A stretch of 64,000 nt of DNA from an uncultured bacterium (lineage in GTDB: Bacteria > Methylomirabilota > Methylomirabilia > Methylomirabilales > CSP1-5). Both the position numbers and the translations under genes were made by a program. The notes beneath the pieces were generated by a model. It did not search any database, was not told where the DNA came from, and saw only the letters and a list, made by a program, of their open reading frames with translations. Location of the stretch: assembly GCA_964348275.1 (NCBI GenBank), contig CAYGBT010000010.1:21424-85423 (forward strand), in the 5' to 3' direction. Below, piece by piece: positions 5,253-57,850 of this stretch; positions within the stretch are counted from its first letter, which is position 1; the number at the start of each line of letters is the position of its first letter.

Positions 5253-5332
5253 GGGGGAAAAAAGGGGGGAAAAAGGGGATAAGAGGGGGAAAAAGGGGAT
5301 AAGTTCAATTATCTGTAAGTTCAATTATCTGT
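5253..5332. repeat. Purine-rich G-run array (GGGGGAAAAAGGGGATAAG x2 plus partial units) followed by a perfect tandem 16-mer AAGTTCAATTATCTGT x2
   Basis: Read directly: the 19-nt unit is at 5265-5283 and 5285-5303; the 16-mer is at 5301-5316 and 5317-5332. An inverted copy of the 19-mer lies at 6058-6075. Confidence 0.8.
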
Positions 5333-6056: not shown

Positions 6057-6110
6057 ACTTATCCCCTTTTCCCCCTTCCCCTTTTCCCCCTTTTCCCCTT
6101 CGTACCTAGG
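6057..6110. repeat. Pyrimidine-rich array, inverted counterpart of the 5253-5303 G-run array
   Basis: CTTATCCCCTTTTCCCCC (6058-6075) is the reverse complement of GGGGGAAAAGGGGATAAG. It is followed by degenerate TTCCCC/TTTTCCCCC units. Confidence 0.8.
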
Positions 6111-8027: not shown

Positions 8028-9018
8028 CGCGCCTAGGTATCGCTAAATGCTCATTGACACTAAGGTAAATCAGCAAGCCGGGTGCCATCGGAAGGAGGGT
8101 TCTCCTACCAAGATCTAATTCCCGAATTCTTAAGCAAAAGAGCGGCCAGAGAGGGACGAAAAGAGGCAAATCCTCCGGGCCAACTGAGACACGGGTGCCT
8201 CAGCGCGGTCAGGGATACTACTCCCGAGAAACTGGGGAGCTAGGCACAAGCCCCCTGCATTCACCTGGGACAATCGTGTCCCCAGGTCACGAGGTTGTCC
8301 CAGGGGAGAGGGCCTAACTTTGCCGTCAGCAGCGCACGCGATCTTGGGACACCCGGGGGTGAATTGAGGCGGATAGGTAACCTGAGGACTGATAGACTTC
8401 TACTCCGATTCCATCCCCGATTCCCCTCTGCAGGGATCGATTATTGCCTAACCGTGGCCGGCTTCAGGGGCCTGGGGCAATCCCCCTGGTTGCGGGCAGG
8501 CCTTCAAACGCCCTGGCAGATTACTACCACAAATCAACTACAAATCAACAGTGGGAGGTGTGCTGATTTGCGCATTGCTGGACGCAGCGGTGACCTGCTG
8601 ATTGGTAATTCAGATGCAGCCTTCCGAACCCAAGAAAAACGGCTTGTTACAGGACGCTGCTACCAGAGTGCTACCAGCATGACCTCTACCCGGTGCTCAC
8701 CCAACCCAAAGGCTGACTAACATCTCTAGGAGTTTCCCAGCACCGAAACCCTTGCCCTTGACACCCCTGCCACATGAGGGGACATTTGAGGTCATCTCAG
8801 GTTTTGCATGGATGGAGCCGTGGTGAAGAAAAACTGTAACACTAGGAAACGGCAGCCCTCGCGGCGTCATGCTGCAGGGGCTTTTCTGTTGGGCGCAGTG
8901 ATCTGGCTCTTGCTGCTCAACCCTGCCGTGGCCAACCTTGACGCTTTGCCCCTTTTCCGATAGCATACCACCGCGTTTCAGCGTTTTCTTTTCAGAATAC
9001 TCATCGGTGGGTCGTGTC

Positions 9019-11431: not shown

Positions 11432-11585
11432 GAGTTCATAGTTCAGGGTTAAGGGTTCAGAGTAGAGAGTTCAGGGAAGATCGTGCAGGGTTCAGGGTCA
11501 AGAGTTGAGCATGTAGAGTTCAGAGGAACAAATCTTGCTGATCCATGAGCCATGAACCGTGAACTGTGAACAGTGAACGGAGAAC
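11432..11585. repeat. Heptamer-arm hairpin element filling the mlaF-mlaD spacer
   Basis: Left arm 11432-11522: 13 consecutive 7-nt units (GAGTTCA TAGTTCA GGGTTAA GGGTTCA ...). Right arm 11544-11585: CATGAGC CATGAAC CGTGAAC TGTGAAC AGTGAAC GGAGAAC, the complement of GTTCAnn. Confidence 0.8.
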
Positions 11586-11588
11586 TAG

Positions 11589-23500: not shown

Positions 23501-23980
23501 GTGGTAGTGGATCCGGTGCTCCGTCTCCCCATCGAGGCCTACATCCCCGAGGCGTACGTGTCGGATGCCGTTGTCCGCCTCGGCTTATACCGGCGCCTGT
23601 CGGGGGCCACCTCCGTAAAAGAACGGGAGGATTTTATCGGAGAACTTCAGGACCGGTTTGGTCCCCTCCCCTCGCCGGTGGAGCATCTCTTGATAGCCCT
23701 CGATCTGAAGGCCAAGGCCCGGTTCCTCCGGATTAAGGAGATCGACGCCCGTGACGACGTCGTGCGGATTGCCTTCGGGCCAGCGCCGGCCGTCCCGCCC
23801 GAGCGAATCGTGGGGCTTCTCCACACGATGGGGGGAGAGCTCCGTTATTTGCCCCAAGATACCTTGGAGCTTCGGTGTGGGAAGACCTCCGCTCTCGAGC
23901 GGATTGAGCGGCTCCGGACCCTGCTCGACCGGATGGGGGAGCCGAGTACAGAGTCAACCGGGGCCGCAGGAAGGTCATGA
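20513..23980 (+). CDS. mfd: Transcription-repair coupling factor
   Basis: 1155 aa; CarD-like ...GDVVVHVDHGIGRF...; helicase motifs ...GDVGYGKTEVAMRAAF..., ...VVDEEQRFGV..., ...QLRGRVGR... Confidence 0.95.
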   Translation: MITGRFGELQLLGLQEALSDLAAGGALSLHGLWGGARALVLGKVARVLKRPLVVVTATLKEGEELTADLRFFLDRDRVNLFPEREVPPFQPVSPPLEVRAERIQRLRELRDDELKALVVPIRALFRRLLPPDALDLATLHLYPHRIVPPEQVVALLEVGGYRLVPQVEQSGEYSRRGGILDIGLPHLLHPVRIEFFGDEIESIRTFDVRTQRSLSSLPTTDGVTILPLSEILLSAESREFARQWMGRERPAAVKEAVESGRPGPGLERYLPSFYRRIVPLWEYFSAGTILVWDDPDQLKAQAERTEHLLVEEYARHQAEGLPPLTATHLRWKEIHVRLASRPRVDVFPFSPAPQRERSTSGFETKQIPSYQGRMMPLVRDLENWRREGRAITLVARGTTQAHRLCEVLREHDLGATVTDGPPGPGSIHILEGGLSAGFYFAPLKQTYLTEAEIFGPRRAVSVRRPKIREDRALAAFEDVKSGDVVVHVDHGIGRFHGLQKLTVGEVEGDYLLLEYAGGDKLYVPVDKLHLVQRYVRADTTVSGPPLDRLGSSSWARAKDRVRASIREMAQGLLKLYAARQLAGGHAYSPDTPWQREFEVAFPFEETEDQMGAIQQVKVDMERPQPMDRLICGDVGYGKTEVAMRAAFKTVMDGKQVAVLVPTTVLALQHFQSFADRFAPFPIVVEMLSRFRTRGEQHKVLRGLRDGTVDVVIGTHRLLQRDVRFRDLGLLVVDEEQRFGVAAKERLKQFRTEVDVLTLTATPIPRTLHMAMLGVRDVSTIETPPEDRLSIRTYVTRFDPEVIRQAVEEEIGRGGQVFFVHNRIESIHSMARFLKRLLPHVKLAVAHGQMTEETLERVMCDFYAKRYQLLCSTAIIESGLDIPTANTIIINRADRFGLAQLYQLRGRVGRDRFRAHAYLLIPREEALSESARKRLQVIAELTELGSGFKIATRDLEIRGAGNLLGVEQHGHINAVGFDLYCQLIEETVRELKGVDREVVVDPVLRLPIEAYIPEAYVSDAVVRLGLYRRLSGATSVKEREDFIGELQDRFGPLPSPVEHLLIALDLKAKARFLRIKEIDARDDVVRIAFGPAPAVPPERIVGLLHTMGGELRYLPQDTLELRCGKTSALERIERLRTLLDRMGEPSTESTGAAGRS

Positions 23981-24957
23981 TACGTCACTCCCGAAACTTT
24001 TTGCTCGTTGTACTCATCGTCTGGGGGGGAACCGCGGCGGCCGCGGAGCCGATCCTCATTGACAAGGTAGCCGCCGTGGTGAACGACGAAGTGATTACCC
24101 TCAGCGAGGTCCAGAAGGAGGGGAAACCCCTCATTCAGCGAATTCGCCAGGAGTTGAGCGAGGACGTTTGGGCGAGTCAGATATCGATTACCCAACGGCA
24201 GGTCCTCGACGCGCTCATCCTTCGCCGATTGCAGTTACAGGAGGCCCAAAAAGAGAATGTCATCGTGGATCAGGCCCAGGTGACGGCGACCATAAACGAG
24301 ATCAAAGTGCGGAACGGATTCAGGAGCGACGCCGAGCTCGCCGAAGCCCTGGCGCAGGAGAATCTCACCCTGGAGGAGTTCAGAACCAAGATCTGGGAGC
24401 AGCTGGTTGTCGATTCGCTTCTCAGCGTGAAAGTGCGAACGAGTGTTGTCTTATCTGAAGAGGAGATTACGGAATATTACCAGGTCCACCTCGCTGAATA
24501 CCAACAGTCCCCCTCGGTGCGGATCCGGCATGTGCTCGTCCGTCTGCCCGAGACTGCGTCCTCTGAGGATGTAGAGAAGGCCCAGAACCGTGCAGCTGAG
24601 GCGCTCGAGGCGCTTCGAAATGGGGGGGATTTTGCAAAAGTGGCCGCACAGTATTCGGATGGCGCGGCGGCCCAGGATGGGGGCGACTTGGGCGTCATCC
24701 GAAAGGGGGAACTGGACCCGACTCTGGAGTCGGTTGCTTTTTCCCTAGAACCCGGGAGCCTCAGCGATATCATCCGGACCGCGGCGGGATTCAATATCAT
24801 TAAGGTGGAGGAACGGACGGCCGGCGATGTGCCAATTGCTGAGGTCCGAGATCGGATGCGCGAACGCCTTTTCGCCGAAAAGGTGGAGAAACGAATGAAC
24901 GAGTATTTTGGGGAACTCAAAGAGAGGGCCTACATCGAGATCCGCCTCACCGAGTAA
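23977..24957 (+). CDS. SurA-like periplasmic chaperone / parvulin-type peptidyl-prolyl isomerase
   Basis: Signal peptide; SurA_N-like region; parvulin domain ...VRIRHVLV...GGDLGVIRKGEL...GFNIIKVEER... Confidence 0.85.
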   Translation: MIRHSRNFLLVVLIVWGGTAAAAEPILIDKVAAVVNDEVITLSEVQKEGKPLIQRIRQELSEDVWASQISITQRQVLDALILRRLQLQEAQKENVIVDQAQVTATINEIKVRNGFRSDAELAEALAQENLTLEEFRTKIWEQLVVDSLLSVKVRTSVVLSEEEITEYYQVHLAEYQQSPSVRIRHVLVRLPETASSEDVEKAQNRAAEALEALRNGGDFAKVAAQYSDGAAAQDGGDLGVIRKGELDPTLESVAFSLEPGSLSDIIRTAAGFNIIKVEERTAGDVPIAEVRDRMRERLFAEKVEKRMNEYFGELKERAYIEIRLTE

Positions 24958-24962
24958 CTTCC

Positions 24963-25050
24963 GCTGAGAGCTAAGAGTCGAGAGTTGAGAGTCAGGGGCT
25001 TACTCCTCTGTTCTGGAACCCCTCGACTCTGGGCACTCGACTCTCGACTA
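24963..25050. repeat. Heptamer-arm hairpin between convergent genes (probable bidirectional terminator)
   Basis: Left arm: GCTGAGA GCTAAGA GTCGAGA GTTGAGA GTCAGGG. Right arm: TCGACTC TGGGCAC TCGACTC TCGACTA (complementary). It fills the 97-nt gap between the stops at 24957 and 25055. Confidence 0.75.
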
Positions 25051-25054
25051 TTCA

Positions 25055-26122
25055 CTAACACAGGGGAAGGTCTGCGGCCGCATTGAGGTCCAGGGATGCG
25101 ACCTCTCCTTGAGCAAGACGGGCGGAGCCGGCCGCGGCGATCATGGCAGCGTTGTCGGTGCACAGCTCGGGCCGGGGCCAATAGACTTCGATCCCGTCAC
25201 GGCCTGCCTTGCTCGCCAGGTGTTGCCGAAGCGAGTGGTTGCAGGCGACCCCACCCGTGATCAGAATCCGAGGGGCGTTCACGCGCTTCGCGGCCTTGAT
25301 GGCATTGCGCGTGAGGACATCCACGACCGCCTGCTGGAAGCTGGCGGCGATGTCCGCCACCAGTTGCGGATTGAGAGGGGCGGGTTCGGAGTTGAAGGTC
25401 CTCGCTCCTGTGGCACCGCGTCTCCGGGGTGTCCGGTACCCCCTGTGCTCGAGATAATGAATTACCGCGGTCTTGAGCCCGCTGAAACTGAAGTCTAACG
25501 AACCATGACCCAGGATTGGTCGCGGGAGGGGTACTGCTCGGGGATCGGCGGTCCTCGCCACGTGTTCGATGTGGGGGCCTCCGGGAAAGGGGAGACCGAG
25601 AAGCTTCGCGACCTTATCAAAAGCCTCTCCCGCCGCGTCATCTCGAGTACAACCCAGCAAGCGATACTTCCTGGGAGCCTCTGCGTGGTACAGGTGTGTG
25701 TGTCCCCCCGAAGCCACCAGGGCGACATAGGGGCACTCGAGGCGCGGATGGTCGAGCAGACCGGCGGCCAGATGCCCCTCAATATGGTTGATCGCCACCA
25801 GGGGCTTCCCAAGCGTGTACGCTAACGCCTTGGCTGCGGACAGCCCCACGAGCAGGGATCCTACCAGGCCGGGACCCACCGTCACGGCGAGGCCCGTCAG
25901 ATCACCAAAATCCATCCCGGCCTCCCGGACCGCCAACCGCATGACCGGCCCGATCATCTCCAGGTGGCGGCGGGAGGCAAGCTCTGGCACGATCCCCCCG
26001 TAGGGAGCATGCACCCTTACCTGCGATGCCACGATGTTGGACCGGATCTTTTCTCCCCCTTCCAACACCGCAGCAGCGGTTTCATCACACGAGGTCTCGA
26101 TGCCCAGGATAAAGTCAACCAT
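25055..26122 (-). CDS. tsaD: tRNA N6-adenosine threonylcarbamoyltransferase
   Basis: ...ILGIETSCDETAAAV..., ...INHIEGHL..., ...LVASGGHTHLY..., ...TGGVACN... Confidence 0.95.
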   Translation of the reverse strand: MVDFILGIETSCDETAAAVLEGGEKIRSNIVASQVRVHAPYGGIVPELASRRHLEMIGPVMRLAVREAGMDFGDLTGLAVTVGPGLVGSLLVGLSAAKALAYTLGKPLVAINHIEGHLAAGLLDHPRLECPYVALVASGGHTHLYHAEAPRKYRLLGCTRDDAAGEAFDKVAKLLGLPFPGGPHIEHVARTADPRAVPLPRPILGHGSLDFSFSGLKTAVIHYLEHRGYRTPRRRGATGARTFNSEPAPLNPQLVADIAASFQQAVVDVLTRNAIKAAKRVNAPRILITGGVACNHSLRQHLASKAGRDGIEVYWPRPELCTDNAAMIAAAGSARLAQGEVASLDLNAAADLPLC

Positions 26123-26137
26123 ATCTTTAAGTTGTTA

Positions 26138-26302
26138 GCTATCAGCGATCAGCTGTCATCAATGACATACAGCGGTCGGCTGTCAGCAGTCGGCTATCAG
26201 CTTCTCCATGGCCTCTCATACTGAGAAGTGAAGCCTGCTACGAGTCTGACGGCTGAGTGCTGAATGCTACTTAGTGATTGCTGATGGCGGGTAGCTGACA
26301 GC
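26138..26302. repeat. Heptamer-arm hairpin element upstream of tsaD
   Basis: Left arm 26138-26200: GCTATCA GCGATCA GCTGTCA TCAATGA CATACAG CGGTCGG CTGTCAG CAGTCGG CTATCAG. Right arm 26252-26302: GCTGAGT GCTGAAT GCTACTT AGTGATT GCTGATG GCGGGTA GCTGACA (complement of TGTCAGC). Confidence 0.75.
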
Positions 26303-26428
26303 TTTCTTCGCTTTCCGACTGGTACCGTTCCACCTATTCTTGTCTGGCCAATCTTCTCACTGCACCCGCTCACGAGTGTTGAAAGAAATCCCGCCCCCTC
26401 GAATTCGGCGTATCAAGTTGGAACGGCA

Positions 26429-27721
26429 CTAGCTGGAGGCCAAGGCCTCCGGGGTCCGTTCGTAGATCAGGATCGCCTTCAGGACCTCCACCGCTCGTCC
26501 AAGTTGAGGGTCCTTCTTGGGGTCAGGGGTGCGCCGGCCCAGGGGCTGGGTCGTATCCCCTTCTTGCTCGCCGATGGTCTGCTGGCGCCGATCGATCGGG
26601 CCCTGAGGCGCGGCCGTCGTCGCCGGCTTGGGAGGCTCGACGACGATATCCGGCGTCACGCCGGCGCCCTCGATGGCGCGCTGGCTCGGAGTGAAGTATC
26701 GGGCGGTCGTCAGCCTGAGGCCAGAGCCGTCGTCGAGCGGAATCACCGTCTGGACCGTCCCCTTGCCAAAGGTCTGGGTGCCCAGGAGGACCGCCCGCTG
26801 GTGGTCCTTCAGTGCTCCAGCCACAATCTCAGAGGCGCTGGCGGAACCCTTATTGACCACCACCACCATAGGGAAGCTCTGGGAATTGTCATGTTCGTCC
26901 ACAAACCGCAGATTCTGATTCTTTGCGCGTCCCTCGGTATATACGATGAGCTTCCCCTTGTCCAGAAAGAGATCAGCCACTTGGACCGCCCGACTCAGGA
27001 GCCCTCCGGGGTTGTTCCGAAGGTCGAGGATGAGGCCGCGCATCCCTTTCTCCACCAGCTCGTCAAGCGCCCCCTCCAGGTCCCGGTGGGTCCGTTCCTG
27101 GAACGAGACCACGCGAATGTAACCGATGCCTTCTCCGAGATCCGAAGCGCGAACGCTATGCACTTCGATGATGTCGCGGACAATGGACACCTCGAAGGGT
27201 TGTTGTCCGTCACGGAGGATGGTCACCGTCACCTGGGTTCCCTTGGGCCCCCGCAGCTTTCGAACCGCCTCGACAAGTGTCATGTCCTTGGTTGGCTCAC
27301 CGTCGATCTGGGCGATACGATCCCCAGCCTGGATCCCGGCCCGATCCGCGGGGGTCCCTTCGATGGGGGCGACCACCGTGAGATACCGGTCCCGCACCGT
27401 GATCTCGATCCCTAACCCCGCGAAGCTACCCTGGGTTTCAATCTGCATTTCCTTGTAGACGTCGGGTGGCATAAAGGAGCTGTGGGGGTCCAAGGTGGTC
27501 AGCATTCCCTGGATTGCCCCGTAGATCAGGTCCTTGGACTCGGTGGATTCGACGTAGTTGTTCCGCACGAGCGTGAGGACCTCGGTGAAGACCTTCAGCG
27601 TGTCGTAGGCTTCGTCCGTGGCCACGACCCGTTGGTGGACACCACTGGTCACGATCAGCACCATTAATAGTGCGATCATCAGTATGACTCGTATCCGGCC
27701 AGTCTGCTTACTGGAGAGCAT
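26429..27721 (-). CDS. Carboxy-terminal processing protease (S41 family)
   Basis: PDZ region ...GLGIEITVRD...GTPADRAGIQAGDRI...; S41 core ...LDLRNNPGGLL...VVVNKGSASASEIV...GTQTFGKGTVQ... Confidence 0.9.
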   Translation of the reverse strand: MLSSKQTGRIRVILMIALLMVLIVTSGVHQRVVATDEAYDTLKVFTEVLTLVRNNYVESTESKDLIYGAIQGMLTTLDPHSSFMPPDVYKEMQIETQGSFAGLGIEITVRDRYLTVVAPIEGTPADRAGIQAGDRIAQIDGEPTKDMTLVEAVRKLRGPKGTQVTVTILRDGQQPFEVSIVRDIIEVHSVRASDLGEGIGYIRVVSFQERTHRDLEGALDELVEKGMRGLILDLRNNPGGLLSRAVQVADLFLDKGKLIVYTEGRAKNQNLRFVDEHDNSQSFPMVVVVNKGSASASEIVAGALKDHQRAVLLGTQTFGKGTVQTVIPLDDGSGLRLTTARYFTPSQRAIEGAGVTPDIVVEPPKPATTAAPQGPIDRRQQTIGEQEGDTTQPLGRRTPDPKKDPQLGRAVEVLKAILIYERTPEALASS

Positions 27722-39524: not shown

Positions 39525-39644
39525 GAGCCGCTGCTAGCATTGATTGGTTTTTGGTGTTCGGTGTTGAGTCTTGGGTGGAGCCGGCACGGAAAGCATCCTT
39601 CGTCGGCGGAAAACTCCAGTGGTTGCTTTGGAGAAGAATTTATG

Positions 39645-39776
39645 TTCCGCGCCGAACGAATCGTGATACATCAGGACGGCCACCCCCACCTGCGCTGCGC
39701 TCTCCGAAAGCCTTCGGAGCCGTCCCGGTCCGGGAGCCCGTCCCGGGATCTCGGACCCGCAAACCGGATTCCGCCT
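39645..39776. repeat. Dispersed repeat R1, copy B (hairpin 39702-39719), flanked by heptamer arrays at 39546-39580 and 39827-39854
   Basis: Shares TTCCGnGCCGAA...CATCAnGACGGCCACCCCCACCTnCGCTnCGCT...TCCGAAnGCnTTCGGA...TTCCGCC with copy A. Flanking arrays: GGTTTTT GGTGTTC GGTGTTG AGTCTTG GGTGGAG, and GTCATCG x3 followed by GTCGACG. Confidence 0.75.
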
Positions 39777-39867
39777 TCCTCAGGATCTGCTTCCCTTGCC
39801 GGCTCGCGGGTTTTAGAAATTCTGCTGTCATCGGTCATCGGTCATCGGTCGACGGCCCGGAGGGCCT

Positions 39868-42948: not shown

Positions 42949-43695
42949 CTACTTCACTGGCGAGATCTCGATAATCACCTCCTTTTCGGCATCGATTTTG
43001 AACTTAATCCTGTCCCCCTTCTTGAGCCCCTTCAGGAGATCCACTGAACTGACCGGATAGCCCATCGTCATGGCCCCCATGAACCCCTCAATCTCCCCGT
43101 GCTTCACCACGAGGAGGTTCTCCGTCGGGTCCACGATCCGAACCTCCCCCTCCCCTTTGTAGAATTTGGGCTTCGTTGTGTGGGCATGGCCCGGGGTGAG
43201 GCCTTTCAGGTACGCCACGAGGCTGGTCCATTCCTCAAGGGTGAGGAGATCCGCGTAGCTGGGATGGATCGAGAGGCCATCCTCACCAGTGAAGCCCGGA
43301 GCTGTGACGATCACGGCGTTCGGATCAAGGATGGACTCGGCAAGGTACTCGACAGGGTGGTGGGCCCCCATCCCGGTGAGGTCGGGTCCGGGCCGCTGCT
43401 CTGTCATGCTGGCGGGGAATCTTTCCCCCTGTACTTGGTGACAGGAATAGCATTCCAGCTTGATGAAGACCGCACGTCCAGCCTCGGGGTCACCGGCGGG
43501 CATGGTGAACTTCCATCCCGGTGGGGTCCCCCCATGTCTGTGTAGCTCCTCCATCGTGATACGCACAGGCCCTTTCGGTTTCTGTGGGGACTGAGCGGGA
43601 TGGTGATGGCCAGGCGGCTCGTCGGCTGCTCCAGAGTTGCATAACAAGAATCCGCCAAGCAGGATCATCAAAGGGATCTTTCCTCTGAATTTCAT
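42949..43695 (-). CDS. Periplasmic c-type cytochrome fused to a CusF-like copper-binding domain
   Basis: Signal peptide; HHHP stretch; heme motif ...LECYSCHQV...; C-terminal CusF-like ...GEGEVRIVDPTENLLVVKHGEIEGFMGAMTMGYPV...GDRIKFKI... Confidence 0.7.
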   Translation of the reverse strand: MKFRGKIPLMILLGGFLLCNSGAADEPPGHHHPAQSPQKPKGPVRITMEELHRHGGTPPGWKFTMPAGDPEAGRAVFIKLECYSCHQVQGERFPASMTEQRPGPDLTGMGAHHPVEYLAESILDPNAVIVTAPGFTGEDGLSIHPSYADLLTLEEWTSLVAYLKGLTPGHAHTTKPKFYKGEGEVRIVDPTENLLVVKHGEIEGFMGAMTMGYPVSSVDLLKGLKKGDRIKFKIDAEKEVIIEISPVK

Positions 43696-43725
43696 GGATG
43701 CATTCTCCCTCCGTCGAAGCGGTCG

Positions 43726-44178
43726 CTACGGCTTCACCACCCACCACCGATCCCCGGCCCCATGCCCTTCAGTATCTCCCCGCTTCTTGTCTCTTCGAAA
43801 GTAATACAACGGCTTGCCCTTGTACCCGTACTGCTTGGAGCCGTCGTCTCGAGTGATAATGCTAAGCGGAGCGGCAGGCGTAGGGTCACCGGTTTTTGGG
43901 GCGTAAGGAGGCCATGCTCGGGCGCAGCCCCCGGCACACGTGCTCTTCCCGGGCTCGGTGTCGTTGTCGAAGATGTACAGCGTCATGCCACTCCCATCCA
44001 CGAGAAAGGTGCCGAGTTTATCCTTCGTCGCAGTCTTGAGCGGTGCGGGGGGGCTCTGCTGGGCAAAACTGGACGACAGAACCAAGAACGAGAGGGCGAA
44101 GGCCACTCCCGTGAGCATACTGAACAATCTTCCGCGGGTTGTGAGATACATGGTTACCTCCTTGAGGTTTGAGAACAT
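43726..44178 (-). CDS. Secreted protein with repeated Y-x-(F/W/Y)-x-x-D motifs (COG4315-like)
   Basis: ...GMTLYIFDNDT...CAGGCARAWPP...GKPLYYFRRDKKRGDTEGHG... The start may be the internal MYLTTRG. Confidence 0.65.
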   Translation of the reverse strand: MFSNLKEVTMYLTTRGRLFSMLTGVAFALSFLVLSSSFAQQSPPAPLKTATKDKLGTFLVDGSGMTLYIFDNDTEPGKSTCAGGCARAWPPYAPKTGDPTPAAPLSIITRDDGSKQYGYKGKPLYYFRRDKKRGDTEGHGAGDRWWVVKP

Positions 44179-44248
44179 GCGTTGCCGATGCGGGGTTGTC
44201 GAGCACGTCCGAATAAGTAGCCCCCGTAACGAGTGACTGAAGTTCTGG

Positions 44249-44641
44249 CTATTTTGGCATACCGATCAGGCTGAGGGCAAGTAGGGCGAGTCCCCAGCCG
44301 GGGAGCATCGCTGCAACCCCGAGGAACCAATACGTCATCGAGCCGTGGTTACGGCTTGACTGTCGCAGGTGCCTGACCACGGTGTCTGTGATGATGACGC
44401 CGAGGAGGGGGGCCGACGATGAAGTGATCAGCACAATCTTGGGTATTGATCCTCCCGAAGGCGCCAAGAGACCAAGAAAGGCGATGAGCCAAGCAGGAAA
44501 AAGAGCCGCCATCCCTAAAAACCAACACCGCTCCGGGCTATAGTGCCGCCACGGGCTGCTCGGGTCTGCGACCAACGCGCCGGTTCCGCACAGGCCCAAG
44601 GCCGCCGCCACGACCGACCAGGTGATCATCACTTCTCCCAT
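44249..44641 (-). CDS. Hypothetical 4-TM membrane protein with an internal duplication
   Basis: ...WFLGMAALFPAWLIAFLGLLAP... and ...YWFLGVAAMLPGWGLALLALSL... are repeated halves. Confidence 0.5.
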   Translation of the reverse strand: MGEVMITWSVVAAALGLCGTGALVADPSSPWRHYSPERCWFLGMAALFPAWLIAFLGLLAPSGGSIPKIVLITSSSAPLLGVIITDTVVRHLRQSSRNHGSMTYWFLGVAAMLPGWGLALLALSLIGMPK

Positions 44642-44671
44642 GGACTGAAAGGAGAATCTCAGTGGGAGCCT

Positions 44672-45250
44672 TCAACCTCGGAGGAGCGCCTTGATGTCAT
44701 GGGCCAGCTCGCTAGGCTTGAAGCTGCTCCCATGGACGACGCGAATCTTTCCTTGTCGGTCGACGAGGTGGACGGGCGACTGGTGCATCACCTCTCCGTT
44801 TTCGTCTTTCCAGACCCTCCCTACCCAGTAGTGCTCCCAAATCGGCCGGAGATCCCTCTTGTCTCCGATCAAAAAATGCCACCGTTCGAGCATCTGCTGC
44901 TCCTGGGAATAGGCATACACACGGTCCTTCGTGTCACGTGCGGGATCCACAGTCACGACCAGCACGGCGACCTTCGGCATGAGTTCCCCGAGGGACTCGA
45001 CGGTTTCCCGAAGTTTACCCGCAATGAGGGGACACAAGTCAGGGCAGGACGTATACATGAATGTGAGAACCACGACCCGTCCCTCGAAGTCGGATGGGCG
45101 CACCAGCTTCCCGAATTGATCGGAGAGAGAAAAATCACGCGTGGGTCGGGGTGGGTCAAGCGCCGTTCCTCGATAAGTTGCCTCCTGTGTGCAGCCGATC
45201 AGAAGGCTTGCCACCAGAGTCAAGGTAGCCACGGATCGAGATGCGTTCAC
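44672..45250 (-). CDS. SCO1/SenC-family copper chaperone
   Basis: Lipobox ...LLIGCTQ; thioredoxin-fold motif ...FMYTSCPDLCP...; conserved His ...VMHQSPVHLVD... Confidence 0.85.
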   Translation of the reverse strand: MNASRSVATLTLVASLLIGCTQEATYRGTALDPPRPTRDFSLSDQFGKLVRPSDFEGRVVVLTFMYTSCPDLCPLIAGKLRETVESLGELMPKVAVLVVTVDPARDTKDRVYAYSQEQQMLERWHFLIGDKRDLRPIWEHYWVGRVWKDENGEVMHQSPVHLVDRQGKIRVVHGSSFKPSELAHDIKALLRG

Positions 45251-45262
45251 CGGATTATCCTC

Positions 45263-47656
45263 TTAGGTTTTTGTTTGTAGGAGGCGCAGACCGTTGAAGA
45301 TAACCAAAAGAGAGGCACCCATGTCCGCCCCGACCGCCATCCACAAGGTGGCATAGCCGGGGATGGCTAAGGCAAGGAACAGGGCCTTGATAGCGAGAGC
45401 AAGTGTAATATTTTGCTTCACAACGCGGACCGCACGGTGCCCGAGAGCAATCGCGAACGGGAGCTTCGTGAGGTCGTCAGCCATCAGGGCGACATCTGCC
45501 GTCTCCAGAGCCTGGTCGGTCCCGGCCGCTCCCATAGCGATGCCGATCGTGGCGGCCGCGAGTGCCGGGGCGTCGTTCACCCCGTCGCCCACCATTCCTA
45601 CAGTGCGGTATCGTCGCCTCAGTTCCCGGACCTGCTCCACCTTGTCCTCGGGTAAAAGATCTGCCAGGTATTCCTCGATGCCCAAGCGCTTTGCGACCGC
45701 TTCGGCAGTCCCCCAGTTATCGCCGGTGAGCATGACAAGCTTCCGCATGCCCGTCGCCCTCAATCCTCGGAGGACCTCAGCAACCTGTCCTCGCAACTGG
45801 TCGGCGATGGCGATAATCCCGACCGCCCCCGCTTGGGTTCCCAAGATAACGGTGGTCTTCCCCTCCGCTTCGAGTTCGTCCAGATTTGCTTCCACGTCCG
45901 AACTGCAAAAGCCCATCTCCTCGGCGAATCGGTGGTTCCCGATGAAAAAGCTCCGTCCCTCGATACGGGCTTGCGCCCCTCGTCCGGTTTGAGCCAGGAA
46001 CTCCTCCACCTCCGGCCACTCGATCCCGAGTTCACGCGCCTTCTGGACAATGGCCTGTCCGAGATGGTGCTCTGATCGGGCTTCGATGGCCGCCGCGATC
46101 CGCAACAGCTCCCGTTGGTCGCGGTTCACGGTTGACGGTTCACGGTTCACGGCAGGAGCAAGATCTTTCTGTGAACTGTGAACGGTGAACTGTGAACAGG
46201 TGAGGATGTCGGTCACGGCGGGAAAGCCGCGGGTGAGGGTCCCGGTCTTATCAAAAGCGATAGCCTTGAGCGCCCCAAGGCCTTCGAGGAAGCGTCCCCC
46301 CTTGATTAGGACGCCATTGCGGGCCGCTGTCGCCAGGCCGGAGACGATGGTCACTGGCGTGGAAATGACTAAGGCACAGGGACAGGAGATCACCAGAAGC
46401 ACGAGGGCTCGATAGAACCAGGAATCAAAGGGCTGGGCCAAAAAGAGAGGGGGGATGATGGCGATCAAAAACGCACCCGTAATGACCGAGGGGGTATAGT
46501 ATTTCGCAAACTGATCAACGAAACGCTGCGAGGGGGCCTTCTGGGCTTGTGCCTCTTGAACCAAATGGATGATTCGGGCGAGCGTCGTATCCGCAGCCAG
46601 ATGGGTAACCTCGATCTCAAGAGCCCCCTGCTGGTTAATGGTCCCGGCAAACACTTCGTCTCCTTCCCGCTTTTGTACCGGCATCGACTCGCCAGTGATG
46701 GGGGCCTGGTTTACCGCCGAGGCGCCCTTGATCACCTTTCCGTCGAGGGGAACCTTTTCGCCGGGCCTCACAATGAGCATGTCACCAAGTCGGATCTCTT
46801 CCACCGATAGTGTTTGCTCGTCTCCATTGCGACGAACGAGGGCCTGCGGCGGGGCCAGCTCCATCAAGGAACGAATGGCGGTCCGGGCGCGGTCCATACT
46901 GTAGGACTCCAAGAGTTCCGCGAGCGCGAAAAGGAAGGTGACGGTGGCTGCCTCGGCCCATTCGCCGATATACATGGCGCCGAGGATGGCGATGCTCATC
47001 AGGAAGTTGATATCCAGATTGAGTTGCCGCGCCGCCAAAAGGCCAGTCCGTGCGATGCGGTATCCTCCCGTCACCACAGCGGCCAGGTAAATCGGGACGG
47101 TGGTCTTCTGCGGAAACCCGAAGAGTGTGAGGGCCATTGCGGTCCCGGTGAGGCATCCTGAGGTCACGGTCAGGATGAGCTTCTTGTACCGTGTCCAGAA
47201 AGGATCGGGCGGTCTCCTCATTCGGCCGTCACCCACGGCCCGCGCGGTCATTCCCGTCTCGGCGACCGCTTCCAGGAGTTCATGGCGTGAGGTCTGCGTG
47301 GGGTCATGTTTGACCCGCAAACGCTGACCCACGACGTCGGCGGTGATTCCTTCAACCCCCGGCAGCGGGGATAGTTTTCTCTCTAGGGCCGCTACTTCGT
47401 CGGCGCAGTGCATCCCTTCGACCTCGAGGACCGAAGTGAGAGGGCCGGTGGCATCACCAAGTTGGTAGCCGAGAGCCTCCATCCGCTGGCGGATAACGGC
47501 CAGGTCCGCCTCCCGGTCACCCGGCTCGACGTGGAGCTTTCCTGACCCAAGGTCCACCTGTGCTGCCTTGATGCCGGGGAGGCTGGCGATGGCCTGCTCG
47601 GCCAGCGTAGCACAGGCAGCGCAGTGTATCCCGTTGATCGACAGCTCAATGTGCAT
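45263..47656 (-). CDS. P1B-type heavy-metal ATPase, ZntA/CadA-like (Zn/Cd/Pb type)
   Basis: HMA ...INGIHCAACA...; TM6 ...ISCPCALVISTP...; ...DKTGTLT...; ...GDGVNDAPAL... I prefer ATG 47656 (MHIELSING). The track ORF extends to a TTG at 47953, past a promoter-like site. It contains a 75-nt repeat insertion. Confidence 0.9.
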   Translation of the reverse strand: MHIELSINGIHCAACATLAEQAIASLPGIKAAQVDLGSGKLHVEPGDREADLAVIRQRMEALGYQLGDATGPLTSVLEVEGMHCADEVAALERKLSPLPGVEGITADVVGQRLRVKHDPTQTSRHELLEAVAETGMTARAVGDGRMRRPPDPFWTRYKKLILTVTSGCLTGTAMALTLFGFPQKTTVPIYLAAVVTGGYRIARTGLLAARQLNLDINFLMSIAILGAMYIGEWAEAATVTFLFALAELLESYSMDRARTAIRSLMELAPPQALVRRNGDEQTLSVEEIRLGDMLIVRPGEKVPLDGKVIKGASAVNQAPITGESMPVQKREGDEVFAGTINQQGALEIEVTHLAADTTLARIIHLVQEAQAQKAPSQRFVDQFAKYYTPSVITGAFLIAIIPPLFLAQPFDSWFYRALVLLVISCPCALVISTPVTIVSGLATAARNGVLIKGGRFLEGLGALKAIAFDKTGTLTRGFPAVTDILTCSQFTVHSSQKDLAPAVNREPSTVNRDQRELLRIAAAIEARSEHHLGQAIVQKARELGIEWPEVEEFLAQTGRGAQARIEGRSFFIGNHRFAEEMGFCSSDVEANLDELEAEGKTTVILGTQAGAVGIIAIADQLRGQVAEVLRGLRATGMRKLVMLTGDNWGTAEAVAKRLGIEEYLADLLPEDKVEQVRELRRRYRTVGMVGDGVNDAPALAAATIGIAMGAAGTDQALETADVALMADDLTKLPFAIALGHRAVRVVKQNITLALAIKALFLALAIPGYATLWMAVGADMGASLLVIFNGLRLLQTKT
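46124..46198. repeat. Heptamer-arm hairpin inserted in frame within the ATPase coding sequence
   Basis: GTTCACG GTTGACG GTTCACG GTTCACG, a 19-nt loop, then GTGAACT GTGAACG GTGAACT GTGAACA. That is 75 nt, or 25 codons (CSQFTVHSSQKDLAPAVNREPSTVN on the coding strand). Confidence 0.85.
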
Positions 47657-47791
47657 GGTCCGTTTCACGCCGAGTTTCCTGATGGATGTAATCTGGTCAA
47701 TGAGTTGCAAGAACAGGGCCCAGTTGTCCCGCGGATTCTGCGCCGCCCTTCCGTGGGGTTCAAGAGCCCTGAGGCATCCCGCTCTCCACTC

Positions 47792-47820
47792 ATTATCGAG
47801 AATAGTCGAAAAAATATCAA
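47792..47820 (-). promoter_or_regulatory. Sigma70-like promoter for the ATPase gene (TTGATA-N17-GATAAT)
   Basis: On the minus strand, TTGATA (47820-47815), a 17-nt spacer, then GATAAT (47797-47792), in a locally AT-rich patch about 135 nt upstream of ATG 47656. Confidence 0.35.
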
Positions 47821-47965
47821 TCAGCGTGGGGGGAGTCAAGGAGGGGCATCGTCGAGCATTGAGTGGGGACCCATCAGGGTTATGCCAACAAAGGCGTGAC
47901 TCTGGGCCGGTGAGGGAAGGGTGGGGTGCACGGCGCAAAGACATACTTGACAAACTTAATTATTA

Positions 47966-47983
47966 GATGTATCTAAATACATC
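47966..47983. promoter_or_regulatory. AT-rich palindrome GATGTAT-CTAA-ATACATC in the divergent ATPase / multicopper-oxidase control region
   Basis: Read directly. It lies next to TTGACA at 47947-47952 and 43 nt upstream of ATG 48026. A DtxR/MntR-family regulator is encoded in the downstream operon. Confidence 0.35.
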
Positions 47984-48025
47984 ATTCAGTGACGCTGTGT
48001 ATTTTGGCGTGATGGGGCTTGCGGT

Positions 48026-49117
48026 ATGGACGAACAAGGTCAGAGACCAAAAGAGCCATCCCTCTTTGCGGCAGGTTTGAGCCGTCGCCGGTTTCTGGGG
48101 AGCCTCGTCGGTTTAGGCTTTCTGGGAACAGCCACGGCGTCCCTGGCAGACCCGGCAAAGAGGCCCCCCGGTCAGGGGGAGGAATCTGGAGCCACATCTT
48201 CGGCTCCTCCGCCCTATTCGACGAGCACCGTTGAGGCCGCTCAGGTCCCCGTGGCCGACCTTCCCCCCCCTCTTCAGGTGTCGGATCCAATGACCTTTCT
48301 GAGTAGCTTTGACTACGGACGGGTAAAACAACTCTCCGGAGGTCAGGCCCAGCGAGAATACACCGTCATTGCTCAGGACCGCGAGATCGAGGTGGCACCG
48401 GGCGTCAAGTTTCCTGGCTGGACCTTCAACGGGTATGTCCCGGGGCCCACCCTCCGCTGTCGCGAAGGGGATCTCATCAGACTTCACTTCCTGAACGCCT
48501 CCAGCATGCCGCACACCATACACTTCCACGGCTTTCATCCGGCCAATATGGATGGGGTGTTCGAGGTTGTCCCGCCGGGTGGCCGATTTTGCTACGAGTT
48601 CACCGCCGATCCCTTTGGCGTTCATCTGTATCACTGTCATGTCATGCCGCTTAAGAAGCACATCCACAAGGGACTCTATGGAGCCTTCATCATTGATCCG
48701 GCGCAGCCGAGACCACCGGCAAAAGAAATGGTCATGGTGATGAACGGCTTCGACACCGATTTCGACGGTGAGAACGAGTTCTACACCGTGAATGGCGTGG
48801 CCAACTACTTCCTGGAACATCCCATCGAGGTGCTGCAGCACGAGCCACTTCGCATCTATCTGGTGAACATGACCGAGTTTGATCTCGTCAACTCCATTCA
48901 CACCCACGCGACATTCTTTAAGTTCTTCCGGACCGGGACCAGGCTGGATCAGTACGAGTACACCGACACGGTGATGCTCTGCCAGGGCGAACGCGGGGTC
49001 ATGGAGTTTAACTATAAGTTCCCGGGAACGTTCCTGTTTCACGCACATCAGACCGAGTTTGCGGAGCTCGGGTGGATTGGGGTCTTCAAGGTCCTGTCCA
49101 CCGAGGAGGGGGCATGA
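48026..49117 (+). CDS. Tat-exported two-domain multicopper oxidase / cupredoxin protein
   Basis: Tat signal ...LSRRRFLGSLVGLG...; Cu ligand motifs ...MPHTIHFHGFHP..., ...LYHCHVMPLKKHIHKGLYG..., ...FLFHAHQ... Confidence 0.75.
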   Translation: MDEQGQRPKEPSLFAAGLSRRRFLGSLVGLGFLGTATASLADPAKRPPGQGEESGATSSAPPPYSTSTVEAAQVPVADLPPPLQVSDPMTFLSSFDYGRVKQLSGGQAQREYTVIAQDREIEVAPGVKFPGWTFNGYVPGPTLRCREGDLIRLHFLNASSMPHTIHFHGFHPANMDGVFEVVPPGGRFCYEFTADPFGVHLYHCHVMPLKKHIHKGLYGAFIIDPAQPRPPAKEMVMVMNGFDTDFDGENEFYTVNGVANYFLEHPIEVLQHEPLRIYLVNMTEFDLVNSIHTHATFFKFFRTGTRLDQYEYTDTVMLCQGERGVMEFNYKFPGTFLFHAHQTEFAELGWIGVFKVLSTEEGA

Positions 49118-52913: not shown

Positions 52914-52989
52914 GGGGCTGTGGCGCAGTTGGGAGCGCGCTTGACTGGCAGTCAAGAGGTCGGGGGTTCGAATCCCCTCAGCTCCACCA
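52914..52989 (+). tRNA. tRNA-Ala (anticodon GGC)
   Basis: Folded by hand: acceptor GGGGCTG/CAGCTCC with G3:U70; D arm GCGC-AGTTGGGA-GCGC; anticodon arm CTTGA-CTGGCAG-TCAAG; T arm with GGTTCGAATCC; encoded CCA. Confidence 0.9.
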
Positions 52990-57070: not shown

Positions 57071-57850
57071 TCAATAGTCGGGGCCTATCCGCATTTCCCC
57101 CCGCATTTCCGTCTTCTTCGCCTCATTCAAATATGCCTCGAAGTTCTCACTACTAAAGAGCGTCTTCGGCCTGAGGAATCGGGACATCTTGGCATCGTTC
57201 AGCCACTCGTCTGCCTTGCAGGCGATCACGGCCTTGAAGTCCTCCACTGTAAAGCCCTCACTGAAGCGGGCACGGATGTGCTGACGGGTTTTCTGCGTTG
57301 AAGTCCTGAATGCCGTGTCAGCCTTCTGGTTCAAGTACGAGACGATTTCCCTGATGGCACCGAGATCGTTAGAACTCGACAATATCTCTTTCTTACATTC
57401 TTCCATTCTCACGTTATGGCCCTTACTTGGCCCTCGCTTGGCCCCTACTTGGCCCTCCTCTTGGCCCTCAGTCTGCTCTGATGATTGATAAGCGTTGAAA
57501 TTCAGTACTGTTATCTCCGTATATCTCTTGGCCCTCCTCTTGGCCCGAATTGAACCGATTCGTTCGAGGTTGACCAAAGCGCCCCTGACGACCTTTCTGG
57601 AGACCTTAGCCATCTCTGCGAGCTTCGGCTCGCTAGTCACGAAGCTGCCCCGAGCAATTTCCACCTTACCGGTCCCGTCGAACCATTTCCGGCTGATGTT
57701 GTTCGCCATCAGGAGGCACGTGGCCCAGACTTTAAACTGTCCAGGAGACAGACCCCAGACCGTGCTCTCCATCGTCTTGCGGTGAAATTTGATCCAGCCA
57801 GCAATAGTCATCAGAGATTCATGACCTTGGTCTAAGGCGCCGTTTGGCAT
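57071..57850 (-). CDS. Phage-type replisome organizer / replication initiator-like protein
   Basis: The C-terminal region ...TQKTRQHIRARFSEGFTVEDFKAVIACKADEWLNDAKMSRFLRPKTLFS..ENFEAYLNE... matches the conserved phage C-terminus (Phg_2220_C-like). It lies directly upstream of the helicase gene. Confidence 0.7.
   Translation of the reverse strand: MPNGALDQGHESLMTIAGWIKFHRKTMESTVWGLSPGQFKVWATCLLMANNISRKWFDGTGKVEIARGSFVTSEPKLAEMAKVSRKVVRGALVNLERIGSIRAKRRAKRYTEITVLNFNAYQSSEQTEGQEEGQVGAKRGPSKGHNVRMEECKKEILSSSNDLGAIREIVSYLNQKADTAFRTSTQKTRQHIRARFSEGFTVEDFKAVIACKADEWLNDAKMSRFLRPKTLFSSENFEAYLNEAKKTEMRGEMRIGPDY
57426..57546. repeat. Iteron-like array: CTTGGCCC x4 (starts 57426, 57437, 57448, 57460), a 59-nt AT-rich spacer, then CTTGGCCC x2 (57527, 57539)
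   Basis: Read directly; 11-12-nt phasing. It is embedded in the replisome-organizer coding sequence. Confidence 0.7.

Follow-up and report, generated by a model that had tools for sequence, protein, structure and literature searches.

We analysed a 64,000-nucleotide (nt) stretch of DNA from an uncultured bacterium of the Methylomirabilales (phylum Methylomirabilota, NC10; contig CAYGBT010000010.1), referred to here as the window, and found that its gene for a P1B heavy-metal ATPase contains, in frame, a 75-nt hairpin built of tandem heptamers. An insert is present at the same site in 68 of 68 NC10/Methylomirabilales orthologs, its heptamers differ between lineages, and its history is decoupled from that of the surrounding gene. 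With about as much doubt as conviction, we propose that this cassette is one allele of an old, position-fixed, hypervariable DNA-level heptamer repeat that is tolerated in a permissive loop of the protein. The gene and the parts of the cassette are listed below; comparison loci are designated by L and a number.

45263-47656, minus strand: Zn/Cd-type P1B heavy-metal ATPase, 797 amino acids (aa) from the ATG at 47656, reading frame open to 47953
46124-46198, minus strand: heptamer-arm hairpin, type A allele, 75 nt, translated as the disordered loop C487-N511
46171-46198, minus strand: 5' arm on the coding strand, TGTTCAC AGTTCAC CGTTCAC AGTTCAC
46152-46170, minus strand: loop or core, AGAAAGATCTTGCTCCTGC on the coding strand, first rich in purines and then in pyrimidines
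46124-46151, minus strand: 3' arm on the coding strand, CGTGAAC CGTGAAC CGTCAAC CGTGAAC
46131-46137, minus strand: patched unit, CGTCAAC on the coding strand and GTTGACG on the plus strand, where a perfect GTGAAC would give an in-frame TGA

Architecture and age of the cassette

On the plus strand the element reads exactly as an earlier note on this DNA had described it, with four GTTCACG-type units (GTTCACG GTTGACG GTTCACG GTTCACG, 46124-46151), a 19-nt loop (GCAGGAGCAAGATCTTTCT, 46152-46170) and four GTGAACN units (GTGAACT GTGAACG GTGAACT GTGAACA, 46171-46198). The same note placed it in frame inside a minus-strand P1B ATPase after the phosphorylation motif, and this position is borne out by the open reading frame (ORF) at 45263-47953, in which the minus-strand translation of 46124-46198 is CSQFTVHSSQKDLAPAVNREPSTVN, 25 residues flanked in the protein by ...DKTGTLTRGFPAVTDILT and RDQRELLRIAAAIEARSEHH. 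With at most one mismatch allowed, GTGAACNGTGAAC matches the window ten times against an expectation of 0.17 (none of 100 shuffles reached ten), and all ten matches fall within the cassette or within 11552-11585. A 93-nt region folds with z-scores of -4.6 as RNA and -6.3 as DNA. Strong tandem arrays of period 7 occupy five regions of the window, as against none or one for each other period from 4 to 12. The cassette is a heptanucleotide simple sequence repeat in the sense of at least three tandem 7-nt units with copy-number differences between strains, and likewise a palindrome lying in frame within an ORF at a structurally permissive surface position. No direct repeat flanks it as a target-site duplication would (CCTCACC on one side, GCGACCA on the other). 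An Rfam scan of the window returned a single match, the tRNA gene at 52914-52986, and a promoter and terminator scan of 45800-46500 returned nothing at the cassette and a single terminator-like site at 46262-46282; the cassette has the features of neither an intrinsic terminator nor a known RNA family.

By sequence, the host gene appears to be functional, as the earlier note had thought possible. The protein has two N-terminal heavy-metal-associated (HMA) domains, a CPC motif, DKTGT at residues 469-473, the HP-type motif as SEHH at 528-531 and a GDGxNDxP hinge, the features that define P1B heavy-metal ATPases, and its catalytic motifs are all invariant in 62 sequences (D469-T473, C425-P426-C427, S528-E529-H530 and G690-D691-G692..N694-D695..P697). 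The profile TIGR01525 scores 614 bits (cut-off 346) and that of the Cd family TIGR01512 527 (cut-off 313), and the ZntA equivalog models stay below their cut-offs (NF008262, 619 against 1005; NF033775, 536 against 1240); on these profile scores the gene is Zn/Cd-type by subfamily only. The closest solved structures are 7qbz, a Cd ATPase, and 4umv, ZntA. An AlphaFold2 model built from the 62-sequence alignment has a mean predicted local distance difference test score (pLDDT) of 80.7 and renders residues 487-511 as coil with a pLDDT of about 40, between a confident strand (480-486) and a confident helix (512-525), in agreement with the 25-aa surface loop that had been predicted for this segment.

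The insert is old. The distance from DKTGT to SEHH is 54-82 aa in the 68 orthologs, which are 71-83% identical to the window's protein, and 37 in all outgroups (at most about 54% identity). Measured as the whole DKTGT..SEH(P/H) span, it comes to 41 residues in 84 of about 125 fetched loci and to 38-44 in most, against 63-99 in NC10, so that the segment is normally short, as the earlier note had held. The 25-aa insertion claimed there needs qualifying: 25 residues are encoded, and they are inserted relative to every outgroup, but the net gain is about 22 (59 residues in the window's ATPase against 37), consistent with the roughly 22-25 extra residues found between the post-DKTGT strand and the first helix of the nucleotide-binding (N) domain on comparison with 7qbz and 4umv. 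The one high-scoring match without an insert, P0066, is a tandem fusion protein of 43-49% identity and hence an outgroup. Since all orthologs carry the insert, the insertion event must be older than the radiation of the clade.

These results rule out a recent insertion specific to this genome, a possibility that the earlier note had entertained, since all 68 orthologs of at least 71% identity carry an insert at that site. Nor does the element appear to be currently mobile, as had also been suggested, given the lack of a target-site duplication and an element model that finds only three sites in 314 kb of NC10 DNA. What does hold is that a repeat of an otherwise intergenic kind sits in coding sequence with the frame kept. 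No homologous 25-aa segment lacking the nucleotide repeat was found, every ortholog with available DNA having period-7 arrays. In other lineages the same loop of the ATPase contains unrelated, non-heptamer inserts (L015:4022-4168, L098:4760-4906, L127:11159-11335, L130, L132, L135, L148 and L150), including 8 aa in a Planctomycetes clade, Cys-rich stretches of 9-11 aa (NCKGSNGQASCPAC-like) and 18 aa in L127, which suggests that the site is generally permissive.

Variation, reading frame and exchange of alleles

Two period-7 arrays surround a short core in 17 of 17 alleles with DNA, in cassettes of 66-190 nt. Across these alleles the unit types are GTTCACN, GGTTCAT, TCGACTC, GTCCGAC, GTCCAAC, GACCGAT, GAGGACT and GGTCGAG, and the alleles group into the following flavours.

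Flavour A, GTTCACN / NGTGAAC: window, L160, L002, L085
Flavour A', GGTTCAT or GGTTCAG, with right arm TCGACTC / TCAACTC / CTGAAC: L162, L081, L001, L086, L169, L088
Flavour C, GTCCGAC / GTCGGAC: L003, L164
Flavour C, GTCCAAC / GTTGGAC: L083, L004
Flavour D, GACCGAT / ATCGGTC: L167
Flavour E, GAGGACT / AGTCCTC nested around a C-type remnant: L082; left arm lost in L087
Mixed arms: L166, L168

Folding is significant in about half of the alleles (z <= -2.5 in the window, L160, L003, L164, L082, L167 and L169). The core at 46152-46170 is homologous to the cores of the other A and A' alleles and to that of an intergenic element between an MlaF-like gene and MlaD, described below; it is the most variable part of the cassette within populations. 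A whole-cassette MAFFT alignment put the arms out of register, and pairs were therefore counted on a gap-free alignment of the arms only. In the seven hairpin-bearing alleles both sides had changed in 14 of 24 arm pairs, and 91% of paired arm cells were complementary against 76+-2% in shuffles (0 of 500 as high) and 18-43% when the partner was slid. The 1-nt spacers between the hexamer helices are complementary in no case. The 3' arm on the coding strand is 100% identical in the window, L160, L002 and L085, in spite of flanks that share only about 75% identity. Right arms of the non-complementary 'B' kind (CTCGAC/CTCAAC) might have been taken for a pure coding adaptation, an explanation weakened by the presence of the same units in the intergenic element between the PASTA gene and rpe.

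The conflict between such arrays and a reading frame has left several marks. In a perfect GTGAACN array TGA occurs in each of the three frames, while a GTTCACN array is open in each of them, and at the window's site a perfect right array would translate as ...NREP*TVN. The odd GTTGACG unit at 46131-46137 can be explained by the removal of this in-frame TGA: the in-frame unit is TCAAC in 5 of 5 alleles with TGAAC-type right arms, whereas off-codon units are TGAAC in 15 of 21 (p=0.007), an argument confined to the in-frame TGAAC unit. C-type units are free of stops on both strands, and C alleles retain complementary arms. Large length differences within flavours are 42, 42 and 63 nt, that is, 6 and 9 units and in each case a multiple of 21, the least common multiple of 7 and 3; the insert sizes in the 68 proteins cluster at about 20, 25-28, 33-36, 39-40 and 48 aa. 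Together, these lengths argue for 7-nt slippage filtered by the reading frame. All 80 alleles, from 12 NC10 loci and 68 proteins, are in frame and without stops, which argues that the cassette is translated and not bypassed; no out-of-frame allele was seen in this sample, which favours intact genes.

The flavours encode unrelated hydrophilic peptides, all rich in S/T/P/Q/D/E/G, and homologous cores are translated in differing frames. Given also the predicted disorder of the loop, a specific role of the loop in the protein is unlikely.

Cassette and gene have followed different histories. On a tree of the protein without the insert the flavours are scattered and sister genes carry unlike cassettes, which rules out slow in-situ divergence along the gene tree. 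The following pairs give the identities of the upstream and downstream flanks and of the cassette.

L160 and L083: flanks 99% and 93%, cassette 53%
L002 and L082: flanks 98% and 97%, cassette 46%
L162 and L164: flanks 95% and 94%, cassette 51%
Window and L160: flanks 75% and 76%, cassette 88%
L003 and L164: flanks 75% and 74%, cassette 78%

The divergent tracts reach 20-40 nt into conserved flanking codons, and the donors are therefore likely to have been other alleles of the same ATPase gene. This pattern of sequence identity indicates that short-tract homologous recombination exchanges cassettes between strains or lineages. Chimeric assembly seems unlikely, most alleles having been recovered from two or more independent assemblies. 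Among the members of one tight population cluster, 8 of the 25 sites in the insert are variable against 75 of 769 elsewhere (p=0.0025), a density 3.3 times that of the rest of the protein and concentrated in the loop.

The strength of the hairpin depends on the strand that is folded. As mRNA, the cassette is ordinary, at -27.7 kcal/mol against -24.8+-5.6 for 81-nt windows of the gene, whereas its complementary strand, at -48.4 kcal/mol, lies beyond all 80 other windows (minimum -41.1); the ATPase gene as a whole has no folding asymmetry between strands. The antisense strand is the stabler in 13 of 17 alleles, by a mean of 9 kcal/mol, because mismatches in the arms of the sense strand are A.C in 28 cases and G.U in 8, and each A.C mismatch has G.T or G.U as its counterpart on the opposite strand. 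The plus strand of the window folds better at four of the five heptamer sites, whatever the orientation of the genes, which lie on the plus strand at the Mla and PASTA-rpe sites and on the minus strand at the ATPase and at a spacer at 26.1-26.4 kb; the GC skew of the window is +0.023, and L160 and L164 agree. The asymmetry thus tracks the DNA strand and not transcription, which argues against a role at the mRNA level, and it fits a replication-strand mutation bias or a structure formed on single-stranded DNA. Selection on a hairpin in the sense mRNA is unsupported, in view of the ordinary sense fold, the excess of A.C over G.U mismatches and the dependence on DNA strand.

Related hairpins in NC10 and anammox bacteria

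Heptamer hairpins also occur between genes, in the window and elsewhere.

11432-11588, plus strand: MlaF-MlaD junction hairpin, GTTCAGG-type left arm, GTGAACN right arm, loop with ATCTTGCT
24966-25049, no strand assigned: GAGAGTC / GACTCTC hairpin between the convergent SurA-like (23977-24957) and TsaD (25055-26122) genes
26130-26302, no strand assigned: heptamer-array inverted repeat of TCAGCNN / CAGCNGT units in the spacer from TsaD to an S41 peptidase
39820-39858, plus strand: GTCATCG array, 3.4 units, in the PASTA-rpe spacer
L174:3889-4000, L175:3896-4000, L172:1-46 and L173:1-24: copies at the Mla site
L018 (about 7 sites in 22 kb), L014-L016, L098, L099, L157, L005:3417-3475 and L033:2150-2222: anammox/Planctomycetota hairpins, main unit GGGAGTA / TACTCCC

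The kinship that the earlier note saw between the cassette and the intergenic sequence at 11544-11585 is upheld, as the two have the same unit, GTGAACNGTGAAC is confined to them, and their loops have ATCTTGCT in common. The Mla element, of 157 nt, fills the entire MlaF-MlaD spacer inside the operon and is identical in two independent assemblies, L170 and L171. Heptamer hairpins at this site occur in other NC10 genomes down to 65% MlaD identity, with changing units, and the Logan contigs L172 and L173 end within them, indicating that assemblers break at heptamer repeats. The window's MlaD has a 100% identical protein entry, on four contigs of up to 93.5 kb, and an identical MlaD is present in GCA_012974945.1; together with the names of the best ATPase matches, this places the window in the NC10/Methylomirabilales lineage. 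Compared with L170 (same strain, NCBI), the window differs by two substitutions and by an indel of 18 nt close to a tandem repeat of 11 nt, ACAAATCAACT (8529-8549; the indel lies at about 8510-8550 in the window and about 6319 in L170). For the window's ATPase the protein database holds no identical record and no match above 83% identity; the gene may be annotated otherwise or interrupted in the strain's public assemblies.

The hairpin at 24966-25049 folds alike on both strands, at -41 kcal/mol, and its unit class is also found in the right arms of A' alleles of the ATPase. The TsaD-S41 spacer (26123-26428, 306 nt) reaches -119.5 kcal/mol on the plus strand and includes a second inverted repeat, 26314-26335 / 26416-26437. 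The heptamer site of the PASTA-rpe spacer is conserved in position, with other units in L160, L161, L164, L162, L169 and L001. This spacer is 343-373 nt long in the window (39525-39867) and L001 (13443-13815), against 130-145 nt in L160, L164 and L169; the long versions contain several GC-rich hairpins beside the GTCATCG array, and those of the window and L001 can be aligned at both ends.

When aligned, the ATPase, Mla and rpe cores have a common architecture of two GTTCA-type units, a purine-rich then pyrimidine-rich stretch and two TGAAC-type units. Five of nine heptamer classes at other NC10 sites exactly match classes of the ATPase cassette, against 0.10 expected. We considered whether ATPase and PASTA-rpe flavours agree within a genome, as would be expected of exchange between the two sites in one genome; the sharing of units tracks flavour and not genome. 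Covariance models of the core, whose pairing was set by hand after an RNAalifold consensus on the multi-site alignment gave no pairs, found only the ATPase, Mla and PASTA-rpe sites in the 314 kb of NC10 DNA, copies outside the training set included, and in 1.46 Mb of control DNA a single marginal match, itself a real heptamer hairpin from an anammox metagenome-assembled genome. A dispersed multi-copy family with conserved sequence, terminal repeats and target-site duplications was not seen in the same 314 kb.

Outside NC10, 25 of 36 period-7 arrays have an inverted partner, nearly all of them on Brocadiales/Planctomycetota contigs. All of these hairpins are intergenic, often a short way past the end of a gene; some show two levels of nesting, and in some the loop contains a run of T. 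NC10 and Planctomycetota have 6 of 21 heptamer classes in common, no significant excess over the 4.4+-1.8 expected by chance; what they share is the architecture alone. The ATPase cassette is the sole intragenic copy in the roughly 2.2 Mb examined, and in the literature searched we found no description of heptamer hairpins from NC10 or anammox bacteria.

A gene at 5367-6053 encodes a Y1 tyrosine transposase resembling the transposases associated with repetitive extragenic palindromic (REP) sequences, or RAYTs (PF01797, E=6e-15; NF047646, 70 bits, below the cut-off of 80). It is flanked by inverted G/A-rich arrays, GGGGGAAAAAGGGGATAAG (5253-5303) and CTTATCCCCTTTTCCCCC (6058-6100), whose repeat (GGGGGAAAAGGGGATAAG) is unrelated to the heptamer arms and confined to these flanks; a tie between the heptamer hairpins and this gene by shared flanking sequence was sought and none was found. 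Beside the gene, a 16-nt direct repeat, TAAGTTCAATTATCTG, occurs twice at 5300-5332. L174 and L175 lack the RAYT-like gene and its two neighbours (a CdhD-like gene and a methyltransferase gene) in their syntenic interval from OppC to LapA. Elsewhere in the window an 11-nt tandem repeat, TGGCCCTCACT, runs for 4.8 units (alternatively a 22-mer for 2.3) at 57417-57470.

The metal-homeostasis neighbourhood of the ATPase (42949-49117) is conserved in L160, L162, L164 and L169. The neighbours are a multicopper oxidase (48026-49117), SCO1/SenC (44672-45250), a Lipoprotein_15 gene and a cytochrome c/CusF gene, and relatives have in addition an ArsR-type regulator, a ZIP transporter, a DtxR-type repressor and CopC/CopD.

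Competing explanations and known systems

We propose the following model for the origin and persistence of the cassette. A heptamer-arm hairpin of the otherwise intergenic kind would have become inserted in the ATPase gene on a single occasion, in the clade's ancestor, landing in the first loop of the nucleotide-binding domain, which tolerates insertions, and would since have been translated as a disordered surface loop, probably with no specific role in the protein. Its arrays may gain and lose 7-nt units by slippage, frame-keeping changes alone surviving to give steps of about 21 nt, and stop codons would be purged as a GTGAAC unit reading TGA in frame becomes GTCAAC. The complementarity of the arms while the heptamer changes is most likely maintained by template switching within the hairpin together with homogenisation within the arrays, whether or not pairing is also selected. 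Short-tract homologous recombination, for which the hairpin may serve as a hotspot of breakage or recombination, would swap entire cassettes between strains and lineages together with 20-40 nt of adjoining codons. As the stable hairpin forms on the strand complementary to the mRNA, the mRNA itself would not be burdened.

Several observations weigh against this model. None of the 68 orthologs has lost the insert, the minimum being about 17-20 aa, which is unexpected for a deletion-prone neutral repeat and over such divergence hints at upkeep by selection; the sample of loci and proteins is, in addition, biased towards intact full-length genes. About one third of the alleles (L162, L081, L086, L087, L166 and L168) have non-complementary arms, and no one rule fits every allele. 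Arm co-variation was counted in only seven alleles with clear hairpins, in a register chosen by the analyst, and selection for structure would account for it equally well. Pure template switching predicts complementary 1-nt spacers, which are seen in no allele. The argument from strand asymmetry is based on five sites and a weak GC skew (+0.023), and the window's own allele was seen in no second assembly.

Some of these points would be met if the cassette were a functional nucleic-acid element under selection, as DNA structure or as RNA from the antisense strand, with the protein loop a tolerated by-product; examples would be a target of a protein that recognises hairpins or heptamers, a signal associated with replication or recombination, or an antisense regulator of the ATPase. 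We regard this as rather doubtful while granting it a real chance. The insert has been kept in 68 of 68 orthologs and never wholly lost, the flavours differ by compensatory changes in both arms, the right arm stays 100% identical in genes with only some 75% identity in their flanks, the hairpin of the complementary strand is exceptional (-48.4 kcal/mol), hairpins persist at fixed intergenic sites over deep divergence (PASTA-rpe, and Mla down to an MlaD identity of 65%), and anammox Planctomycetota commonly have hairpins of this architecture. However, in about one third of the alleles the sense strand forms no significant hairpin, and in some neither strand does (L081, -15.0/-13.3; L166, -27.7/-26.3), no promoter-like or terminator-like signal or Rfam family was detected at the cassette, and the asymmetry may simply mirror a replication-strand mutation bias. 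If instead the peptide itself were selected, as a flexible hydrophilic linker or a regulatory disordered loop of the N domain whose length is needed or whose sequence diversifies, one could understand why no allele breaks the frame or contains a stop and all retain some 17 residues or more, why all flavours are rich in S/T/P/Q/D/E/G, and why variability is elevated in an insert close to the hinge between the phosphorylation (P) and N domains. The flavours nevertheless encode unrelated peptides from homologous cores in different frames, and outgroup ATPases work with a 6-residue loop; the period of 7, the complementarity of the arms and their identity in spite of free synonymous sites have no rationale at the protein level. 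The topology of P-type ATPases puts the N-domain loop in the cytoplasm, which makes diversifying selection of the antigen or receptor type implausible. We consider selection on the peptide quite improbable.

Non-triplet tandem repeats inside an ORF are a classic device of phase variation, and the cassette could be a contingency switch in which slippage by one 7-nt unit toggles the metal pump, the in-frame alleles being ON states. Differences in unit number between alleles do show slippage, and two arrays could offset each other, which would fit the homologous cores in different frames; but the lack of out-of-frame alleles among the 12 NC10 loci and 68 proteins (a sample that is, however, biased towards intact genes), the shortness of the arrays (2-5 units), which implies low slippage rates, and the location in a cytoplasmic loop of a housekeeping transporter, not in a surface or restriction gene, make such a switch seem a poor candidate, slightly less credible still than selection on the peptide. 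We give very little credence indeed to a recent mobile insertion, resembling a miniature inverted-repeat transposable element (MITE) or a REP doublet forming a hairpin (REPIN) and possibly mobilised by the RAYT-like Y1 transposase of the window, or to an assembly artefact. Single-stranded hairpins are substrates of Y1/HUH enzymes, the window has a RAYT-like gene (5367-6053), a second, related element in this genome has the unit and a loop 8-mer in common with the cassette, and assemblers do break at such repeats (L172 and L173). Against this, all orthologs have the insert, there is no target-site duplication, only three sites were found in 314 kb, and the repeat flanking the RAYT-like gene (GGGGGAAAAGGGGATAAG) differs and is found nowhere but there; cassettes recur in many independent assemblies, and tracts that include flanking codons point to allelic donors.

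More speculatively, heptamer-arm hairpins, with about 4+4 tandem 7-nt units and a core of about 20 nt, might constitute an undescribed class of DNA elements active as single strands in at least Methylomirabilota and anammox Planctomycetota, with a dedicated mechanism that keeps them at their sites, for instance an enzyme of the HUH/Y1 type or a process coupled to replication that acts on the lagging-strand template. Their one intragenic copy, domesticated or trapped, would then be the ATPase cassette, as a programmed hotspot of allele exchange between strains, a proposal that we think unlikely.

How does the cassette relate to known repeats? The Rickettsia palindromic elements (RPEs) are the nearest analogue of a palindrome that is translated within the frame where the protein tolerates it; they are summarised together with in-frame intragenic MITEs in PMC10969869 (Ogata et al. 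2000, 2002). As far as that summary goes, RPEs too are translated in frame within conserved enzyme genes, are compatible with the fold and leave the host protein functional, and they also have intergenic copies. They differ in being dispersed, about 100-150 bp long and conserved in sequence and peptide, whereas the ATPase cassette consists of 66-190 nt of 7-nt units replaced from lineage to lineage, in one gene and at one site fixed across an order. We know of no description for RPEs of arm co-variation, steps of about 21 nt or allelic swapping of cassettes.

The 7-nt period recalls the short tandemly repeated repetitive (STRR) sequences of cyanobacteria and the TAACTGA repeats of Beggiatoaceae and cyanobacteria (Mrazek et al. 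2007), summarised in PMC4679880, which also gives background on non-triplet repeats and phase variation. According to the account given there, these repeats have 7-nt units in arrays of 2-6 copies, mostly intergenic near the ends or starts of genes and variable in copy number, and the stop codons within TAACTGA limit its placement in ORFs, as we argue for the cassette (PMC4679880). They are, however, direct arrays of a fixed heptamer, with one inverted case among 170 BOGUAY sets in the same account (PMC4679880). In the cassette an inverted pair of arrays forms a hairpin with the core, the heptamer varies by site and lineage, and one copy is translated.

REP and REPIN elements mobilised by RAYT (Y1) transposases (PMC3116915, PMC3733652) are, like the heptamer hairpins, short, low-complexity extragenic hairpin doublets with a loop at gene ends, and the window contains a RAYT-like gene. 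In contrast, the heptamer hairpins lack a GTAG/CGTC head, have arms of tandem 7-mers and a low copy number, and include one intragenic member; the G/A-rich flanks of the RAYT-like gene, being unrelated to the heptamer arms, likewise set them apart from a REP/REPIN-RAYT system. Template-switch mutagenesis at quasipalindromes (PMC7202029, PMC3820800) copies a change in one arm into the other and so yields changes in both arms without selection, though it is a mutational mechanism that predicts a gradual approach to perfect palindromes, and the 1-nt spacers of the cassette are never complementary. Hairpin-forming insertions in coding sequence that leave the protein functional bring to mind translational bypass. 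Inserts of that kind occur in gene 60 of phage T4 and as the mitochondrial 'byps' of Magnusiomyces; they are skipped by the ribosome, carry stops and are free of the frame, whereas the cassette is in frame in 80 of 80 alleles, all stop-free, with the TGA patched in 5 of 5.

The ATPase cassette offers a natural example of a 7-nt repeat hairpin that has survived in a conserved catalytic domain through the whole history of a bacterial order, and one in which the conflict between repeat and reading frame is legible in steps of about 21 nt, in a patched stop codon and in complementary arms best kept where both strands are free of stops. Because it changes independently of the gene, the cassette would lend itself to the sensitive tracing of recombination and strain structure among populations of Methylomirabilis; it is also a warning for assemblers and for phylogenies inferred from the ATPase gene. 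Beyond this locus, it draws attention to a family of heptamer-arm hairpins, low in copy number, that occupies conserved intergenic positions of NC10 and, with other units, occurs in anammox bacteria; for the mechanism of this family the strand bias and the nearby RAYT-like gene provide leads.

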